Assembly: GCA_963707025.1 (NCBI GenBank)
Contig: CAVPOM010000018.1
Location: 192,001-256,000, forward strand
DNA: 64,000 nucleotides
Reading direction: 5' to 3'
DNA from: an uncultured Verrucomicrobiae bacterium
GTDB taxonomy: Bacteria > Verrucomicrobiota > Verrucomicrobiia > Limisphaerales > Palsa-1400
Shown here: piece by piece, positions 38,996 to 46,260 of the stretch
How positions within the stretch are numbered: the stretch's first letter is position 1
Layout: every line of letters begins with the position of its first letter
Notes under the pieces: model-generated
Seen by the model: the letters and a program-made list of their open reading frames with translations, nothing else
The model's database searches: none
Told to the model about the DNA's origin: nothing
Position numbers and translations under genes: made by a program

Positions 38996-39952
38996 TTATC
39001 CGTGGCGGCGCCGTTTTTCGCGCGTTTCAAAAAAATAGCCGAGGGCGGCGGCGTACGGCTGGTCAGTGCGCACTTCAATGGTGTCTATCTTGGCGGAACG
39101 CAGGGCGCGCAGCATGTCTTCCTGGTGGCGGGCGCGCCGTTCGGCAAAGGCGCGCCGCTTGCGCGCGTCGTGGGTGTTGATCTCGACCAACTCGCCCGTT
39201 TCGGCGTCGGTCAACAGCAGCCGGCCCAGGGGCGGCAATTCCATTTCGAAACGGTCCACCACCTGGATGGCGATGACGTCGTGGCGCCGGTTGGTCTGGC
39301 GCAAGGCGGGCAGGGAGCCGGATCCGAGCGTGGGCGAAAGCAAATAGCCTCCGGGCCGCTGGCGGGCGGCTTCTCCGGCCGGCGGGCGTGGCTCGAAGAG
39401 AAAATCCGAGATCACCACGACAATGGCGTGGCGGCGGGCCAGGCGGTTCAAAACATCGAGCGCTTCGCTAAAACGGGTCCCGCGCCGGGCGGGTTGAAAG
39501 AGCAGGATTTCGCGGATCACGCGCAAGACGTGGCGGCGTCCTTTTTTGGGCGGGATATATTTCTCGACCTCCTCGGTGAAAAGAATCAGGCCCACCTTGT
39601 CGTTGTTGCGGATGGCGGAGAAGGCCAGGACGGAGGCGATCTCGGCCGCCAGTTCGCGTTTGGTTTGCGCGCCCGAGCCGAAGATGCCCGAGCCGCTCAG
39701 GTCCACCAGGAGCATGAGGGTCAGCTCCCGTTCCTCCACGTATTTTTTAATGAAGGGATGGTTCATGCGCGCCGTGACGTTCCAATCAATGGAGCGGACT
39801 TCATCGCCGGGCTGGTATTCGCGCACCTCCTCAAAATTCATGCCCTGCCCCTTGAAGACGCTGTGGTACTGGCCGCCCAGGGTCTCGGTGACCAGGCGGG
39901 TGGTGCGCAGCTCGATCTGGCGGATTTTTTTAAGGATGTCGCGCGGGATCAT
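38996..39952 (-). CDS. DUF58 domain protein (MoxR-associated)
   Basis: GQYHSVFKGQGMNFEEVREYQPGDEVRSIDWNVTAR, EERE, DLSGS, ISDF. Confidence 0.95.
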   Translation of the reverse strand: MIPRDILKKIRQIELRTTRLVTETLGGQYHSVFKGQGMNFEEVREYQPGDEVRSIDWNVTARMNHPFIKKYVEERELTLMLLVDLSGSGIFGSGAQTKRELAAEIASVLAFSAIRNNDKVGLILFTEEVEKYIPPKKGRRHVLRVIREILLFQPARRGTRFSEALDVLNRLARRHAIVVVISDFLFEPRPPAGEAARQRPGGYLLSPTLGSGSLPALRQTNRRHDVIAIQVVDRFEMELPPLGRLLLTDAETGELVEINTHDARKRRAFAERRARHQEDMLRALRSAKIDTIEVRTDQPYAAALGYFFETREKRRRHG

Positions 39953-39956
39953 GGGG

Positions 39957-39982
39957 AATTGAGGATTGCGGATTGCGGATTC
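39957..39982. repeat. Heptamer tandem repeat (ATTGCGG-like)
   Basis: aattgaggattgcggattgcggattc; opposite-orientation copy at 46228-46260. Confidence 0.7.
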
Positions 39983-40001
39983 CGCGGGCGAATAACTCTG
40001 C

Positions 40002-40029
40002 TTGCGCGGGCGAATCCGCGCGGTAAATT
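40002..40029 (+). promoter_or_regulatory. Leaderless promoter of TA cassette A
   Basis: TTGCGC-16-TAAATT-6-ATG(40036). Confidence 0.7.
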
Positions 40030-40035
40030 AGGGCC

Positions 40036-40398
40036 ATGAGTGCGACAGAAATTCTTGCAGCAGCGAAGGCGCTTCCGCTCGAAGAGCGAATCGAGATTGC
40101 CCAAGGCTTGTGGGAAGACATTACCAGCAACGGATACGATCCCGATTTGACGCCGGAACAAACAGCGGAACTCGAGCGCCGTCTCGCTGACTTCGAGAAA
40201 AACCCCGGAGCCGGAATTCTCCTGGAGCAAGTCAAAGCCGAGTTGCGGCAACGCTTCCATTTCGATGACCGTTTGTCTCCAGAGCAAATCGCCGAACTTG
40301 ACCGCCGCGCAGAAGACGCATTGAAAAATCCCGGACGCGGAAAACTCGTTGACCAAGTATTTGCTGAAATTGAGGAACGCCTTCGCGCCAAGAAATGA
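40036..40398 (+). CDS. Addiction-module antitoxin (TIGR02574-like) with internally duplicated C-terminal segment
   Basis: LPLEERIEIAQGLWEDI; LTPEQ.AEL.RR motif occurs twice. Confidence 0.85.
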   Translation: MSATEILAAAKALPLEERIEIAQGLWEDITSNGYDPDLTPEQTAELERRLADFEKNPGAGILLEQVKAELRQRFHFDDRLSPEQIAELDRRAEDALKNPGRGKLVDQVFAEIEERLRAKK

Positions 40399-40703
40399 CT
40401 TTGACGGTCATAGTCGAGGCTGACGCTGAACGGGACTGGGATGAGGCCGTGATGTGGAATGATGAGCGCGAACCAGGAATCAGTCATCGGCTCAATGTTG
40501 CGATTCGTGCAGTTCTTCAAACGCTTGCCCGACAGCCAGAACGATTTTCCGGCGCCACCCGGTTGACGCATAAAGCCAAAGTACCGCCGCCGTGGCCTTA
40601 CTCTGTTTATTTCACCATCAACGTGGAACATCGCGAAGTAAAGGTGCTGGCCATCTGGCACGGCGCGCGCAATCCCGCTGAACTGCGCCGGCGGCTGAAA
40701 TGA
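40395..40703 (+). CDS. RelE/ParE family toxin
   Basis: AERD..EA..W......G; PERF; WPYSVYF; VKVLAIWHGARNP; ATGA-coupled to the antitoxin. Confidence 0.88.
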   Translation: MTLTVIVEADAERDWDEAVMWNDEREPGISHRLNVAIRAVLQTLARQPERFSGATRLTHKAKVPPPWPYSVYFTINVEHREVKVLAIWHGARNPAELRRRLK

Positions 40704-40718
40704 AAAGCCCGCAGGCAG

Positions 40719-40781
40719 TTCGGTCGCGATGCGGTTCGTGCGAATCTCGATCTGGCGGATTTTTTTGAGGATTTCGCGGGT
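40719..40781 (-). repeat. Diverged copy of the 5' end of the DUF58 gene (copy 2)
   Basis: Translates TREILKKIRQIEIRTNRIATE versus resident PRDILKKIRQIELRTTRLVTE. Confidence 0.9.
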
Positions 40782-40793
40782 GGAAAACCGTGC

Positions 40794-40821
40794 TTGCGCG
40801 TCCAAGGGGGCATGGTAAATT
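40794..40821 (+). promoter_or_regulatory. Leaderless promoter of TA cassette B
   Basis: TTGCGC-16-TAAATT-6-ATG(40828), with an extended -10 TG. Confidence 0.7.
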
Positions 40822-40827
40822 AATGCC

Positions 40828-41049
40828 ATGAGTTCGGAAACAATATTCAAAGAAGCCCGCGCACTTCCATTCGTGGAACAAATTGAGCTGTGCCGCAACC
40901 TTTGGAATGGAATCGTGGGTTCGCACGAACTGACGCCCGGCGAAGCGGAACTAATTGACCGCCGTCTGCAAGACCACCTGGAGAATCCCAACGACGTGGT
41001 TTCGTGGGAAGAAGTCAAAGCCAAGCTCGACGCGAAATACCGAAAATGA
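40828..41049 (+). CDS. Addiction-module antitoxin (TIGR02574-like)
   Basis: LPFVEQIELCRNLWNGI, LT..E..LIDRRL, VSWEEVKAKL. Confidence 0.88.
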   Translation: MSSETIFKEARALPFVEQIELCRNLWNGIVGSHELTPGEAELIDRRLQDHLENPNDVVSWEEVKAKLDAKYRK

Positions 41050-41345
41050 AACGCGGATTCGTCCTTCGCCGCGTCGCGGAACTGGAGTATGACGATTCCA
41101 TCGCTTGGTATGAAGGCGAACGGGAAGGCTTGGGGCAGGAATTTCGAGCCACCATCGAGAAATACTTTCACCGCATCGCCGAAACCCCCGAGCGGTTTCC
41201 GAAAGTCAGAGGCGAGGTCCGGCGAGCAGTCGTTCTCGGCCGCTTTCCGTATGTAATTCACTTTCTCGTCGAAAAGGATGGCATCGTGATTATGTCCGTA
41301 TTTCATACGAGCCGCGAACCGGAACAACTGAAATACCGGCGATAA
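41046..41345 (+). CDS. RelE/ParE family toxin
   Basis: AELEY..SIAWYE.ER.GLG.EF, PERFP, RFPYVIHF, SVFHTSREP; ATG at 41046 overlaps the antitoxin stop. Confidence 0.9.
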   Translation: MKRGFVLRRVAELEYDDSIAWYEGEREGLGQEFRATIEKYFHRIAETPERFPKVRGEVRRAVVLGRFPYVIHFLVEKDGIVIMSVFHTSREPEQLKYRR

Positions 41346-41350
41346 GATTC

Positions 41351-41414
41351 TCGCGGTGCGGTTCGTGCGAATCTCGGTCTGCCGGATTTTTCTGGGAATC
41401 TCGCGGGGAATCAT
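41351..41414 (-). repeat. Diverged copy of the 5' end of the DUF58 gene (copy 1, retains its ATG)
   Basis: Translates MIPREIPRKIRQTEIRTNRTA versus resident MIPRDILKKIRQIELRTTRLV. Confidence 0.9.
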
Positions 41415-41806
41415 TTTCCTTTGCTCAACCGTATTTCGATGAATGCTGTCAATTCTTCTGGCGAAACCAATTTTGCTTCGATGCAGCGAATCAAAGTTCT
41501 GCGCTGTTTAACCATCCAATTGCTGTGTTTCAAAGCATCTGCAACTTCGCTCGCCGTCAACCCCAAACCATCGTGTTCAGCTTGATGGTGTTTTTCGCAA
41601 AGCGTAATCAGATTCTCGTCTAATTCATTCCACGGTTCACTGGTTGTGTAGTTGCGATGGTGAGCATTCAGGTCGCCAGCGTGGTCGCCTTCGGATTGGC
41701 AACGCCAGCCGTCACGTTCCATCATGATTTTGCGCTTTGCTCGCCAGCGCGGATCGTCAAAGAATTTCTGCGGAACGCGTGGCCGAGGTTTGTATTTAGT
41801 TGCCAT
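41411..41806 (-). CDS. HNH endonuclease-like protein, low GC
   Basis: W...R..I.ERDGWRCQ, LNAHH, ENLITLCEKHH..EH. Confidence 0.8.
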   Translation of the reverse strand: MATKYKPRPRVPQKFFDDPRWRAKRKIMMERDGWRCQSEGDHAGDLNAHHRNYTTSEPWNELDENLITLCEKHHQAEHDGLGLTASEVADALKHSNWMVKQRRTLIRCIEAKLVSPEELTAFIEIRLSKGK

Positions 41807-41815
41807 ATTCCACGC

Positions 41816-42808
41816 TCACGGCACGGGCAGTTCGTTGAAGATTTTGGTGATGATGGTTTCGCTGGTTTTTTCCTCGGCCTCGGCTTCGTAGGTCACGGTG
41901 ACGCGGTGGCGCAGGACATCCATGCCGATGCTCTTGACATCCTGGGGGGTGACGTAGCCGCGCCCCCGCAAAAAGGCGAAGGCCTTGGCGGCCAGGGTAA
42001 GGGCGATGGTGGCGCGGGGCGAGGCCCCAAGCTGGATCAGGCCCTGGAGTCCCTGGATTTTATAGGCGGCCGGATCGCGGGTGCAGCAAACCATGTCCAC
42101 AATGTAATCCTTGACCTTGTCATCAATATAAATGTCGTTGATGACCTGGCGGGCCTCCAGGATTTGCCGGGCGCTGACCACCGGGCTGGCGGCGGGGATG
42201 GCGCCGGTGCGGGCCATTAAATCCAGGATCTGGCGCTCCTCCTCGCGCGAGGGATAGACAATTTTCAGCTTCAACATGAAGCGGTCCACCTGGGCCTCCG
42301 GCAGCGGATAGGTGCCTTCCTGTTCGATGGGATTTTGCGTGGCCAGCACCAGGAACGGTTCTTCCAGCTTGAAGGACTGGTCTCCAATGGTGACCTGTTT
42401 TTCCTGCATCGCTTCCAGGAGCGCGCTTTGCACCTTGGCCGGGGCGCGGTTGATTTCGTCGGCCAGGACCAGATTGGCGAAAATCGGCCCGCGCCGGGTG
42501 GTGAAGGCGCCGGTCTGCGGATTGTAAATCTGCGTGCCGATCAAGTCGGCCGGGAGCAGGTCGGGGGTGAATTGCAGGCGGGAAAACTTGACATTCAGGC
42601 ACGCCGACAAGACCTTGACGGACAAGGTTTTAGCCAGACCCGGCACGCCTTCCAGCAGGACGTGACCGTTGGCCAGCAAACCAATGGCCAACCGTTCCAC
42701 CAGGTAATTCTGGCCGACGACGACCTTGGCAATTTCACTAAAGAGGGGCCGGACAAAGGCGCTGGCCCGTTGCACCTCATCGTTGATGGCACTGATTCCG
42801 GTATTCAT
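41816..42808 (-). CDS. moxR: MoxR family AAA+ ATPase
   Basis: HVLLEGVPGLAKT, RLQFTPDLLPAD, ADEINRAPAKVQSALLEAM, ATQNPIEQEGTYPLPEAQ.DRF, GASPRA. Confidence 0.96.
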   Translation of the reverse strand: MNTGISAINDEVQRASAFVRPLFSEIAKVVVGQNYLVERLAIGLLANGHVLLEGVPGLAKTLSVKVLSACLNVKFSRLQFTPDLLPADLIGTQIYNPQTGAFTTRRGPIFANLVLADEINRAPAKVQSALLEAMQEKQVTIGDQSFKLEEPFLVLATQNPIEQEGTYPLPEAQVDRFMLKLKIVYPSREEERQILDLMARTGAIPAASPVVSARQILEARQVINDIYIDDKVKDYIVDMVCCTRDPAAYKIQGLQGLIQLGASPRATIALTLAAKAFAFLRGRGYVTPQDVKSIGMDVLRHRVTVTYEAEAEEKTSETIITKIFNELPVP

Positions 42809-42921: not shown

Positions 42922-44427
42922 TTATCCGGCAGAGGCGGCCAGTTCCTCCTCAAAATCCACAATCTCTTTTATTTGCACCAGGAACCAGCGGTCAATTTTG
43001 GTGAGTTGGAAGATTTCCTCGACGGTGAAGCCGGCGCGCAAGGCGTGACGGATGAAGAAAATGCGCTCGGCGTTGGGCGAACTGAGTTTCTGGCTGATGA
43101 TTTCCCGCGGCAAAATATCGCGGTCCTGATAGATGGTGGCGCCGAGGCGCCAGGGCCTGCCGTCGCCGCCCAAACCGGCGCGGCCGATTTCCAGCGAGCG
43201 GAGGGCCTTTTGCAGCGATTCCTTGAAGGTGCGCCCGATGGCCATGGCTTCGCCGACCGATTTCATCTGGGTGTGCAGGGTGGGATCGGCCTGCGGAAAT
43301 TTCTCGAAGGCAAAGCGCGGCACCTTGGTCACCACATAATCAATGGTCGGCTCAAAACTGGCCGGGGTCAGGCGGGTGATGTCGTTGCGGATTTCGTCCA
43401 GCAAATAACCGACCGCCAGCTTGGCGGCGATCTTGGCGATGGGAAAACCGGTGGCCTTGGAGGCCAGCGCCGAGGAGCGCGAGACCCGCGGGTTCATTTC
43501 AATGATGACCATGCGCCCGTTGTCCGGGTTGACGCCAAATTGGATGTTGGAGCCGCCCGTCTCCACCCCCACCGCGCGAATCACGGCGAAACTGGCGTCG
43601 CGCATGAGTTGATATTCCTTGTCGGTCAAGGTCTGAATGGGGGCGACGGTGATGGAGTCGCCGGTATGCACACCCATGGGATCGAAGTTTTCAATGGAGC
43701 ATATAATGACGCAGTTGTCGGCCTTGTCGCGCATGACTTCCATTTCAAATTCCTTCCAGCCGAGCAAGGATTCTTCGATGAGAATTTCCGAGACGGGGGA
43801 CAGCTCCAGCCCGCGCCGGGCCATGATGTCAAATTCCTCGCGATTGTAGGCAATGCCGCCGCCGGTGCCGCCCAGGGTATAGGCCGGGCGAATGATGAGC
43901 GGGAAAGGCCCGACGCGCTCGGCCACGGCGCGCGATTCCTCCAAATTATGGGCCGTGCCGCTGATGGGGACATCCAGCCCGATGGAGAGCATGAGGTCCT
44001 TGAAAATCTGCCGGTCTTCGCCCCGCTCGATGGCGGCGGCGTTGGCGCCGATCATTTCCACGCCGTATTTTTCCAGGGTGCCGCTCCGGGCCAGGGCCAT
44101 GGCCGTGTTGAGGGCGGTTTGTCCGCCCAGGGTTGGCAGCAGGGCCAGTTTGCCCGTAGCGCCCGTCCGCCGCATTTCCTCCGCTTCGCGCGCGATGATT
44201 TTCTCCACCGCCTCCGGGGTGATGGGTTCGAGGTAGGTGCGGTCGGCGAATTCCGGGTCGGTCATGATGGTGGCGGGATTGGAATTGACCAGGACAATGC
44301 GATAGCCCTCCTCGCGCAAAGCCTTGCAGGCCTGCGTTCCCGAGTAATCGAATTCGCAGGCCTGGCCGATGATGATCGGCCCGGCGCCGATAATCAGCAC
44401 CGAGTGAATGTCTGGGCGCCTGGGCAT
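42922..44427 (-). CDS. carB: Carbamoyl-phosphate synthase large subunit, N-terminal half only (501 aa)
   Basis: [49 protein letters not shown]; stops shortly after IDRWFL. Confidence 0.9.
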
Positions 44428-44507: not shown

Positions 44508-45440
44508 TCACCCGGCCAGCCCCCGCACCGTGGCTTCCAAACTGGCGGCGTCGGCGATGTTGAAACTCTGAGCCCGCGGGTCAATTCGTTTCAAGAAACC
44601 GCTCAAGGTCGTGCCCGGTCCCAGTTCGATGAAGCGCGTGAACCCCTCCTCCAGCAAATAGCGCATGGAATCCTCCCAGCGCACTTCCGAGGTCACTTGC
44701 TCGACCAGGCGGGCGGCGATGGCGTCGGGGCTGGTATGCGGCCGCGCCGTGACATTGGAAATGACCGCCGCCGCCGGGAAATTTATGGAGACAGCCGCGA
44801 GCATGGCCGCCACCTTGGGCCGCGCGCCCGCCATGAGGCGGGAGTGATAGGCCCCCGCCACCGGGAGGGGGACCGCCCGTTTGGCGCCTTTGCTTTTGGC
44901 CAGTTGGCAGGCCCGCGCGATTTTTTCCGTCTCGCCCGAAATGACGATTTGCCCCGGGCAATTCAAATTGGCCACCTCAACGTCCGCCTCGGCGCAAACG
45001 GCGCGGGTGGCGTCCAGATCCAGCCCCAGCACCGCGGCCATGCCGCCGCGGGTCAGATCGCACGCTTCCTGCATGAAACGGCCCCGTTGCCGCGCGAGCT
45101 TGAGGCCGTCGCCAAACTCAAAAACTCCCGCCGCCGTCAGGGCGGTCATTTCCCCCAGCGACAAGCCCGCCGCCGCCTGAAAGGAGAATCCCGGCACGCT
45201 TTCCTTTAACAATTGCAGCGCCAGCCAGCTCACCAGAAAAATGGCGGGCTGGGCGTTTTCCGTTTTTGTCAATTCCTCTTCCGGCCCGTGGGAGCAGAGG
45301 GCGGGGAGATCAAAGCCGAGGAGGGCGCGGCCTTGCTCCAGCCAGGGCCGGGTGGAGGGGAACCCTTCGGCCAAATCGCGGCCCATGCCGGGGTATTGGG
45401 CGCCCTGGCCGGCGAACAACAGTGCGGTTTTAGGCATCAC
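44508..45440 (-). CDS. fabD: Malonyl CoA-ACP transacylase
   Basis: LFAGQGAQ..GMG, TENAQPAI, GLSLGE, AN.NCPGQ.VISG, GAYHS, ELGPG. Confidence 0.95.
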   Translation of the reverse strand: MMPKTALLFAGQGAQYPGMGRDLAEGFPSTRPWLEQGRALLGFDLPALCSHGPEEELTKTENAQPAIFLVSWLALQLLKESVPGFSFQAAAGLSLGEMTALTAAGVFEFGDGLKLARQRGRFMQEACDLTRGGMAAVLGLDLDATRAVCAEADVEVANLNCPGQIVISGETEKIARACQLAKSKGAKRAVPLPVAGAYHSRLMAGARPKVAAMLAAVSINFPAAAVISNVTARPHTSPDAIAARLVEQVTSEVRWEDSMRYLLEEGFTRFIELGPGTTLSGFLKRIDPRAQSFNIADAASLEATVRGLAG

Positions 45441-46195
45441 GTCCCCTCACTAAACCACGAACCGCCCGCCGGGGAAAACAGATTTTTGGCCGGCGGCGGC
45501 GCGCCCGGTTGCAGCCGGGCCAGAAATTCTGAAATCGCGCGGACCGAAGCTTCTGGGTGAACCTGGAGAATGAGATGCGGCGACGCAATCCTTTCGAGGT
45601 GAGTCTCTGGAAACCGCCGTTGGACGATTTTAAAATCGCGCGGCTTGACCAAACGGTCTTGTCCCGCCTGCAAATAGAGCAACGGGAAATTCAACGCCGC
45701 CGGCACGAAATCCTCATCGAATTCCAGCAGAACAGAAAACCGGTGCGCCAACACGCGGGGGGAAACCCCGCCAAGCGCATGATAAAACAAAGCAACAACT
45801 TCCTCGGCCGCATCTCCCAATAAAAACCGGCGAACCAGCCAGCGGGGCAGCCGCGTCCTGGTCAGAGCGGTTCCGCAAAATCTTAAGACCGCGATCAAAA
45901 TTCGAGGCGGGGGACATTGCGCGAAGGAGGCGCACAAGACTACCGCTTTGGGAGGCATGACATGGCGCGAAGCTGCCTTCAGCGCGATGGGGCCGGAAAA
46001 AGATTCGGCGACCAAAACGTAAGGTTCACTTTGCGGAAGATGGGCGAGCACAAGCCCGGCCAATTCATCGGCGGAACAGCTCCGGTCAGCCGGGTAAGCC
46101 ACCACCCCCGGCTCAATCTCCGGCGGCAGCACACGAAGCAACGGTGCAAACAAAATCCCTGTTCCATCAAATCCCGGCAGAAAAATCCATTTCAT
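45437..46195 (-). CDS. Alpha/beta hydrolase fold protein
   Basis: FLPGFDGTG.LF, VLVAESFSG, D.LV, PHL; lower GC than its neighbours. Confidence 0.82.
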   Translation of the reverse strand: MKWIFLPGFDGTGILFAPLLRVLPPEIEPGVVAYPADRSCSADELAGLVLAHLPQSEPYVLVAESFSGPIALKAASRHVMPPKAVVLCASFAQCPPPRILIAVLRFCGTALTRTRLPRWLVRRFLLGDAAEEVVALFYHALGGVSPRVLAHRFSVLLEFDEDFVPAALNFPLLYLQAGQDRLVKPRDFKIVQRRFPETHLERIASPHLILQVHPEASVRAISEFLARLQPGAPPPAKNLFSPAGGSWFSEGT

Positions 46196-46227
46196 CTCGT
46201 GGAAGACCGCGATTGACAGGCTGATCT

Positions 46228-46260
46228 TCAATCCGTAATGCGCAATCCGCAATCCGCAAT
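46228..46260. repeat. Heptamer tandem repeat (CCGCAAT-like)
   Basis: tcaatccgtaatgcgcaatccgcaatccgcaat. Confidence 0.7.

Follow-up and report, generated by a model that had tools for sequence, protein, structure and literature searches.

Stacked antisense toxin–antitoxin cassettes at the moxR–DUF58 junction in an order of Verrucomicrobiota carry copies of the adjoining gene ends

The DNA described here is a 64,000-nucleotide (nt) stretch from an uncultured Verrucomicrobiae bacterium (GenBank assembly GCA_963707025.1, contig CAVPOM010000018.1, positions 192,001 to 256,000), hereafter the window, which is located in a 753-kb contig (C18) of the source genome (G000). Between its moxR and DUF58 genes lie two toxin–antitoxin (TA) pairs in antisense orientation, each led by a copy of the start of the DUF58 gene. 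Units of this kind are found at the same junction in many relatives, where they move between host families, stack additively and adjoin gene ends that are locally homogenised. The copies are not dead scars, as their start, frame and register are conserved beyond controls. The parts of the window locus, including the long open reading frame (ORF) begun by the first copy and called the relay ORF below, are as follows.

41816..42808, minus strand: moxR, AAA+ ATPase gene, flanking the array on its 5' side (Pfam AAA_3, E 4e-65)
41411..41806, minus strand: HNH-like cargo ORF of 131 amino acids (aa) (sequence and a weak profile match)
39930..41414, minus strand: relay ORF of 494 codons, stop-free across both antisense TA pairs
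41345..41414, minus strand: DUF58 start copy 1 with its ATG (profile nt 1-70), which anchors unit B and opens the relay ORF
41046..41345, plus strand: ParE-family toxin B, 99 aa from an ATG that overlaps the antitoxin stop (PF05016)
40828..41049, plus strand: antitoxin B, TIGR02574/PF09720 (Pfam/NCBIfam match)
40794..40821, plus strand: promoter-like motif B, TTGCGC-16-TAAATT, 6 nt 5' of the ATG (sequence)
40705..40780, minus strand: DUF58 start copy 2, profile nt 8-83, ATG lost (profile alignment)
40395..40703, plus strand: ParE-family toxin A (PF05016)
40036..40398, plus strand: antitoxin A, TIGR02574/PF09720, two-domain form (Pfam/NCBIfam match)
40002..40029, plus strand: promoter-like motif A, TTGCGC-16-TAAATT (sequence)
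39961..39981, minus strand: three AATCCGC-type heptamers in the spacer 5' of the intact DUF58 gene; genome-wide repeat, stop-free in the relay frame
38996..39952, minus strand: intact DUF58 gene (PF01882, E 8e-81), followed downstream by BatA/VWA-type genes

The gene order, coordinates and orientation given for this locus in an initial annotation (moxR, HNH, copy 1, TA pair B, copy 2, TA pair A, heptamers, DUF58) hold in the sequence, and the unit design that it described, namely a DUF58 start, a ParE toxin, an antitoxin and a TTGCGC-16-TAAATT-6-ATGAGT promoter, is present in both units. Copy 2 was rightly recognised, but its span had been drawn too short: it really covers about 40705-40780 and has lost its ATG. 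Similarity between the units does continue beyond the -35 box, as had been noted, but part of it is copy 2 itself. Identity between the two copies is 88% over 57 nt, and with the intact start they share 77% and 83%; the best 60-nt match between intact start and insert is 46/60, compared with a maximum of 32 in 200 shuffles. Copy 1 is of a foreign type and not derived from the resident gene, whose start ranks 77 of 101 by identity to it; for copy 2 the resident start ranks 62 of 101. Copy 2 is fused in frame to the relay ORF and adjoins the stop of toxin A, forming a copy-toxin junction that is found across the order. The HNH-like ORF starts 9 nt past the moxR stop, and its TGA overlaps the copy 1 ATG. 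Its HNH stretch matches the NCBIfam IscB model weakly (27.6 bits; cut-off 175), a Pfam scan at E 0.01 gives no match, and among the loci compared only two further moxR–DUF58 junctions (L153, L174) hold homologues.

Both window TA pairs match ParE and TIGR02574 above the cut-off in the antitoxin-toxin operon order of type II TA systems, the toxins being predicted ones. Toxin A is 82-83% identical to the toxins of loci L044, L151 and L129, and the closest relatives of toxin B are at L208 (73%) and L118 (70%). The layout TTGCGC-16-TAAATT-6-ATGAGT, read by both window promoters, is seen in 59 units and is not scored by a generic sigma-70 scan. In these 59 units a -10-like hexamer stands 6-7 nt 5' of the antitoxin ATG, and the sequence suggests that the TA transcripts may be leaderless.

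The junction was compared in 130 loci plus the window, of which 127 have a usable DUF58 start, 101 are distinct and 85 include both genes. The array system is spread over one Verrucomicrobiota order, probably Limisphaerales. In the 85 junctions the gap between moxR and DUF58 ranges from -4 to 3764 nt; it exceeds 300 nt in 45 and is shorter in 40, three of the latter having an overlapping stop and start. DUF58-start copies occur at 34/101 loci (39 copies), including 31 of the 85 junctions with both genes, and mirror-image cassettes anchored on the last 52-92 nt of moxR occur at 14/101 loci (15 copies), with nine loci having both kinds. Copies are present in 34/45 long gaps versus 0/40 short ones. 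Nearly all DUF58 copies start at the ATG and end mostly at nt 59-89 (range 36-104), clustering at nt 79-85 and varying with the type of cargo, while the moxR copies measure 52-92 nt in most cases and terminate at the moxR stop. Units are 206-1387 nt long and hold cargo genes (95 units). As in integrative elements, a direct repeat restores the target gene at the junction, and the DUF58 and MoxR proteins are full length and conserved where cargo is present. The longest arrays have four units (L153), and a two-unit array lies in a single-contig genome of 5.9 Mb (L205). Among sequencing runs none contained as much as half of the sequence words, and no RNA data set was listed as containing them. 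Read-derived contigs, mostly from relatives, include empty-junction joints at about 90% identity.

One copy-to-ParE junction recurs at 42 distinct metagenome loci (61 matches) and in at least 25 of 400 other genomes of the order, from 18 families by a hand count of the rows listed. A DNA-level search of 300 other genomes of the phylum, outside the order, found no match to it, and an exact-pattern search of viral contigs gave 0 matches, leaving phage carriage without support. The initial annotation had proposed that, without an integrase, an array grows serially on the start of a conserved gene as its anchor, and had called for a survey of moxR–DUF58 junctions, a fragment never repeated elsewhere being a result that would speak against the idea. 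Copies recur at many junctions of relatives, the number and identity of cargo vary, and the left unit boundary stays fixed at the copy ATG, so the proposal stands. Two features go beyond it: the mirror arrays on the moxR 3' end and a stop-free, ATGA-coupled frame begun by the copies. Two further loci may be placed on record. One junction (L210:585-3930) has three moxR-end copies and one DUF58-start copy, the longest moxR-side array found, and at L189:2987-3760 a copy-TA-copy block lies remote from intact moxR or DUF58, nested in a duplication of another gene's start.

The cargo pool is dominated by one ParE/TIGR02574 TA lineage. The TA types include (i) ParE/TIGR02574, (ii) VapBC, (iii) DUF4160/DUF2442, (iv) UPF0175/DUF3368 and (v) DUF5615; other cargo includes VanY, KilA-N and T5orf172 genes as well as REP-like palindromes. 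A scan of 63 representative cargo ORFs (of 100 picked from 347) found no tyrosine or serine recombinase among them and one transposase family, Y1_Tnp, at 2 loci. The source genome has 22 tyrosine-recombinase matches (PF00589), none of them on contig C18. In the window the array is flanked by moxR, a carB-like gene and DUF58/VWA genes, with no integron integrase alongside, and no short-range inverted repeats were found at the unit borders, no attC covariance model having been run. The system does not appear to be an integron or an integrase-bearing island. The carbamoyl-phosphate synthase large-chain gene immediately 5' of moxR (42922-44427, minus strand) encodes just 501 aa, its N-terminal half.

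The arrays grow by capture, because neighbouring toxins have diverged from one another yet are close to toxins at the junctions of other genomes. Within one array the toxins are 24-53% identical (14 pairs); the window pair, at 24%, is as clearly diverged as the initial annotation held. For the 14 array toxins examined, the best match at a moxR–DUF58 junction elsewhere is 70-100% identical. The toxin tree rejects monophyly of the toxins from the family of the window's host (approximately unbiased (AU) test, p 3e-102; 6e-72 without long branches), and that family is a 100/100 clade in the host tree. Unit B of the window is colinear with a unit from a host outside that family over 603 nt at 74% identity, from 3 nt before the copy ATG, and unit A shares 82% over 499 nt with a unit in another host. 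Among high-identity, non-identical tracts shared between loci, 11/15 begin at most 10 nt from the copy ATG, and hosts with 95-98% identical moxR ends have different inserts or none. The window copies are nearer to foreign DUF58 starts than to the resident one; in other hosts the resident start is often the best match. A near-identical local duplication of 272 nt inside the array of L208, an internal deletion in L006 that left both cassette ends, and decayed copies in L153 that are reused with different toxins (copies 2-4 having common derived mutations and spacers) are as expected of direct repeats under host recombination. Two further patterns were considered and dropped. Exclusion of similar toxins within arrays is not significant at 60% identity or more (0/14 pairs versus 11.5% between arrays) or at 50% or more (2/14 versus 25%). 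Polarised growth is monotonic in L153 (0.68, 0.70, 0.83, 0.87), but as a rule it applies to 6/11 arrays overall.

Homogenisation of the flanking genes was scored in segments of 40 codons, a segment counting when its synonymous identity was 85% or more and the background 65% or less. For DUF58, the 492 cargo-bearing pairs give 88, 109, 24, 1, 0, 0 and 0 homogenised segments in succession, compared with 0/266 for empty pairs, and the signal is confined to about the first 80-120 codons. For moxR, the 1596 cargo-bearing pairs give 35, 28, 32, 0, 0, 0 and 0, compared with 1/703 for empty pairs, the homogenised segments lying in the last 120 codons. The tracts thus reach about 240 nt into DUF58 and about 360 nt into moxR. 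This homogenisation points to homologous recombination rather than to an integron-type enzyme. Since the tracts are longer than the copy, they argue against a fixed-site recombinase and favour a linear donor with one long arm or repeated conversion; the fixed crossover with unchanged flanks of an integrative element is not what is seen. At L209 the same cassette stands at a DUF58 paralogue (47% identical) and is anchored on the paralogue's own start, with the junction at the same position. The genome has recA, comEC, dprA and rho. In the natural transformation of Vibrio cholerae, an arm pair of 0.08/3 kb works at about 100-fold below the level of 3/3 kb, according to the available text of 10.1101/127308.

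The copies also begin a frame that is kept open. The ATG is retained in 91/95 distinct units, and in 82/95 the unit length is 2 mod 3, such that the frame closes with a TGA on the ATGA of the next start; of the remaining units, eight fuse in frame to the next copy or gene and five do neither. The frame is stop-free in 88/95 units, 49/62 distinct lengths are 2 mod 3, and the relay property is present in 38/42 clusters at 80% identity. In the 55 parsed TA units there are 0 stops across toxin and antitoxin, where synonymous recoding gives an expectation of 60.4 stops and of 17.5 stop-free units. Over the antitoxin, where the frame is not codon-aligned, 0 stops occur in 4213 codons versus 117 and 35 in the other frames, and over the spacer the relay frame has 3 stops versus 56 and 37. 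A stop-free run of at least 450 nt that ends on the DUF58 ATGA is found at 55/67 cargo loci, the other frames giving 1 and 1, and an unbroken ORF chain leads from the moxR stop to DUF58 at 36/67 loci, compared with 2/67 when the insert is reversed. Shine-Dalgarno-like motifs precede 5/129 DUF58 starts, the intact DUF58 gene of the window having none 5' of it, and 294/2559 genes (control region 207). In the window the chain runs from the HNH stop, which the copy 1 ATG overlaps, and passes in frame through copy 2 to a TAA that lies 20-22 nt into the DUF58 start; one more heptamer would bring it into the ATGA register. We infer that the stop-free frame would act as a translational-coupling relay. 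A relay on the moxR side is only partly supported by the sequences, as 17/17 moxR-side copies keep the stop and 14 are open, with 4/17 placed for coupling by the criterion applied. A genome-wide relay screen returned 24/111 loci; it used its own gene calls without a control and is not used as evidence.

Similar layouts occur elsewhere in the source genome. Non-paralogous copies were found 5' of 19 gene starts and 3' of 20 gene ends, compared with 5 for mid-gene controls (3671 gene calls), in a list that includes noise. Inspected cases have VapBC-type, HEPN/MNT and ORF6N cargo at gcvP, ETF-QO-like, carbonic anhydrase, formamidase and LPG-synthase genes, and copies were also inspected at argG, parA and uvrD. 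Between clpP and clpX (G000:C6:91488-93780, L190), a 115-aa ORF is built from two copies of the ClpX zinc finger and closes with the duplicated C-terminus of clpP, a two-sided gene-end duplication at another coupled junction. An ETF-QO-like gene (G000:C7:389028-392564, L191) has copies of its own ends on both sides, together with an ORF6N gene and a PIN-type pair; its 3' copy forms an ORF of 17 aa, and the stop of this ORF overlaps the start of the next gene. At G000:C11:20597-23106 (L199) a 68-80-nt segment is present five times 5' of a large gene, with mixed spacers. At one antitoxin locus (G000:C17:63950-64645), one of three with a stop-free antisense frame that are taken up below, an antisense frame of 231 codons runs up to the neighbouring gene's start and terminates on it, the relay layout again, in which no start copy was detected. 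The AATCCGC heptamer runs of the window (39961-39981 and about 46234-46260) recur on many other contigs, often directly 5' of start codons, and may mark other inserts. At 45437-46260 of the window, between heptamer repeats and fabD, an alpha/beta-hydrolase ORF (minus strand) overlaps a small opposite-strand ORF (45557-45823), possibly a further insert with a bridging frame.

The explanation proposed for the junction combines units inserted by recombination, a ribosome relay and retention by TA pairs, and on the sequence evidence its probability is put at roughly 0.7. A pool of small cargo units would circulate among these bacteria at one chromosomal address, each unit comprising the ATG and about 60-90 nt of the DUF58 start, the cargo (antisense for TA pairs) and a promoter with spacer; mirror units would have the last 52-92 nt of moxR. 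Entry would occur by host homologous recombination of the RecA type, in which the carried copy serves as a short arm that pairs with the recipient gene start and the other arm is the donor gene body or a circle closed between two copies. The unit would thus be added 5' of the intact gene, and existing content would not be replaced. Continued use of the upstream copy would make the units tolerable: on leaving the ORF before it, ribosomes would restart at the copy ATG, cross the antisense cassette and terminate on the next ATGA. Such a relay would keep translational coupling and protection from Rho polarity for the DUF58/Bat operon without Shine-Dalgarno sites, the heptamers would be frame adjusters, and the TA pair would resist loss through direct-repeat recombination, addiction acting as the brake. 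In a further version, offered tentatively and at somewhat less than even odds, the cassettes would be recombinase-free and self-spreading, with one 60-90-nt copy serving both as RecA homing arm and as the entry of a ribosome-relaying junk ORF; spacer indels and heptamers would tune the frame, and gain or loss of one heptamer would possibly switch downstream coupling.

Several observations weigh against this explanation. Related units and host pairs make the counts overstate independence, and in the homogenisation test the pairs are non-independent, 25 and 30 genomes feeding the proximal-versus-distal contrast. The first homogenisation analyses, which the 40-codon test supersedes, were confounded by GC content; the binned test was ambiguous for moxR, where the 5' control rose too. 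The top tract examples listed lie outside the window's family. Presence of comEC and dprA says little, because both are common in control genomes (10-11 of 14), and the 22 tyrosine-recombinase matches of the source genome are possible helpers. When units are clustered at 70%, the relay signature falls to 7/11 stop-free and 8/11 with a length of 2 mod 3 (p 0.009). Over the toxin the relay frame coincides with the codon-aligned antisense frame, which is stop-poor anyway, and 3/9 other antitoxin loci of the source genome also have a stop-free antisense frame. In the window the relay ends 20-22 nt into DUF58 (an overlap of 23 nt) and not at the ATGA. No DUF58 copy is present at 14/67 cargo loci, 8 of these 14 lacking a long ATGA-ending frame, and the copy nearest the intact gene is the most similar one in just 6/11 arrays.

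Some of these points would suit a reading in which the copies are scars only. Cargo would then be exchanged by double crossovers in moxR and DUF58, as in minimal mobile elements, the copies would remain as passive traces of rare illegitimate events facilitated by homology, and the open frame would come from a few ancestral inserts or arise as an antisense by-product. Conversion tracts on both sides of the junction agree with this, as do the dominance of a single junction in the data, the stop-poor nature of a codon-aligned antisense frame and the 14/67 cargo loci without a copy. It is nevertheless considered unlikely, in that the frame persists across units of 62 different lengths, 49 being 2 mod 3, and also in units with other junctions and REP-like cargo, 0 stops are seen versus 60 expected, 91/95 ATGs are kept while the rest of the copy decays, and the additive stacking of unrelated toxins exceeds mere replacement. 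An integron-like route, the likeness drawn by the initial annotation, would need a recombinase encoded elsewhere that recognises the DUF58-start site and inserts excised circular units. Speaking for it are the sharp left boundary at the ATG, the clustering of copy ends at nt 79-85, the 22 tyrosine-recombinase matches of the genome and the use of circles in a model of Rhs arrays (in the available text of PMC2935791). It is nevertheless quite improbable: the ends of the copies are spread over nt 36 to 104, with differences between cargo types; the layout is also found at the ends of unrelated genes, namely moxR, argG, parA, gcvP, ETF-QO-like and carbonic anhydrase genes; co-conversion extends far past the copy; and no tyrosine or serine recombinase is among the 63 scanned cargo ORFs. 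With no dedicated recombinase or fixed crossover seen, no attC found (no attC covariance model was run) and tracts that reach into both flanking genes, the comparison to integrons was not sustained.

That a single TA unit was duplicated locally in tandem and then diverged, or that the array is an artefact of assembly, is very improbable and already largely refuted. The 272-nt duplication in L208 and the shared mutations and spacers of copies 2-4 in L153 are what local duplication would give, but the window toxins are 24% identical and each has close relatives elsewhere. No sequencing run spans the window array, which would leave room for the artefact that the initial annotation itself had raised; against it, the two-unit array of L205 lies in a single-contig 5.9-Mb genome, and run X1 yields pieces that, within unit B and the HNH gene, differ from the window at 0-1 positions. 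Least credible of all is a role for the HNH protein as a homing endonuclease, whose cutting of the empty junction would drive the insert. An HNH-like ORF does stand at the junction, and homing yields co-conversion tracts, which count in its favour; the ORF is present in just 3 of the loci compared (window, L153, L174), and arrays are common without it.

The initial annotation did not recognise the system as one already described, and the combination is indeed absent from the literature searched, but the arrays resemble Rhs and type VI secretion system (T6SS) displacement arrays and Neisseria minimal mobile elements. The full-text literature, in which the original minimal-mobile-element and mycobacterial interspersed repetitive unit (MIRU) papers and supplements were outside the scope, gave no account of the junction itself, of TA arrays anchored on a gene start or of relay ORFs that cross TA cassettes. 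The MIRUs of mycobacteria are inserted at operon junctions, where a small ORF within them overlaps the stop of the upstream gene and the start of the downstream one, and they are proposed to keep translational coupling. The relay ORFs likewise overlap upstream stop and downstream start (by 23 nt at the window's DUF58 gene, not ATGA), but MIRUs are short repeats without cargo genes, whereas the bridge here has 70-490 codons, lies antisense to an operon of two genes and begins in a copy of the start of the downstream gene. As in integrons, cassettes form arrays rich in TA pairs with their own promoters; unlike integrons, no intI, attI or attC was found (no attC covariance model was run), and the anchors are of homology length with co-conversion in the flanks.

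For Rhs C-terminal displacement arrays (PMC2935791) and the effector-immunity arrays of the V. cholerae T6SS (PMC5361080), the available text proposes homologous or homology-facilitated recombination, with no integrase shown. These arrays, too, are strings of laterally acquired units led by a fragment of a conserved gene and unrelated to one another within an array. By contrast, the incoming DNA of Rhs/T6SS arrays alters the protein by giving it a new toxin tip, and the displaced pieces are described there as silent. Here, a housekeeping operon junction is used from both sides without any change to the host protein, a self-contained antisense operon forms the cargo, and the upstream copy retains its start codon together with a coupled frame that is open. 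Minimal mobile elements of Neisseria (PMC3787668, PMC1797815) similarly have variable small cargo between conserved flanks, recombination in the flanks and no mobility genes, and the junction bears the sequence signature of these properties; in the available text they hold alternative content between flanks, with no mention of gene-end copies, additive stacking or a relay frame. The additive flexible genomic islands of Ca. Actinomarinales (PMC7771536) share gene-end cassettes, a partial direct repeat left behind and transfer between genera, and differ, as far as that source's available text goes, in their tRNA targets, an assumed site-directed recombination and a repeat without a translational role. 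Chromosomal TA islets (PMC13617665) are TA-only, have no mobile-element genes and are suggested to spread when the core genes beside them recombine; the available text has neither anchor copies nor arrays built in this way. The corresponding text of PMC11375855 and PMC2884548 describes related additive or flank-mediated gain without these features. The mechanism is a variant of known recombination-built arrays, to which a putative but well-supported relay role for the anchor is added.

How chromosomal TA pairs and small cargo without mobile-element genes arrive and persist is an open question, as the available text of PMC13617665 indicates. The moxR–DUF58 junction is a natural series of more than 140 loci in which additive, integrase-free capture is directly readable. 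The proposed recombination-and-relay model predicts that insertion depends on RecA and a short arm, and that downstream expression depends on a stop-free relay frame. If the version with a dual-role copy is true, that copy would explain how TA pairs colonise tightly coupled operons in bacteria without Shine-Dalgarno sites. If the relay is true, long 'hypothetical' antisense ORFs that begin like the neighbouring gene would be functional RNA features, not annotation noise, and the design would be a natural recipe for non-polar insertion into coupled operons.

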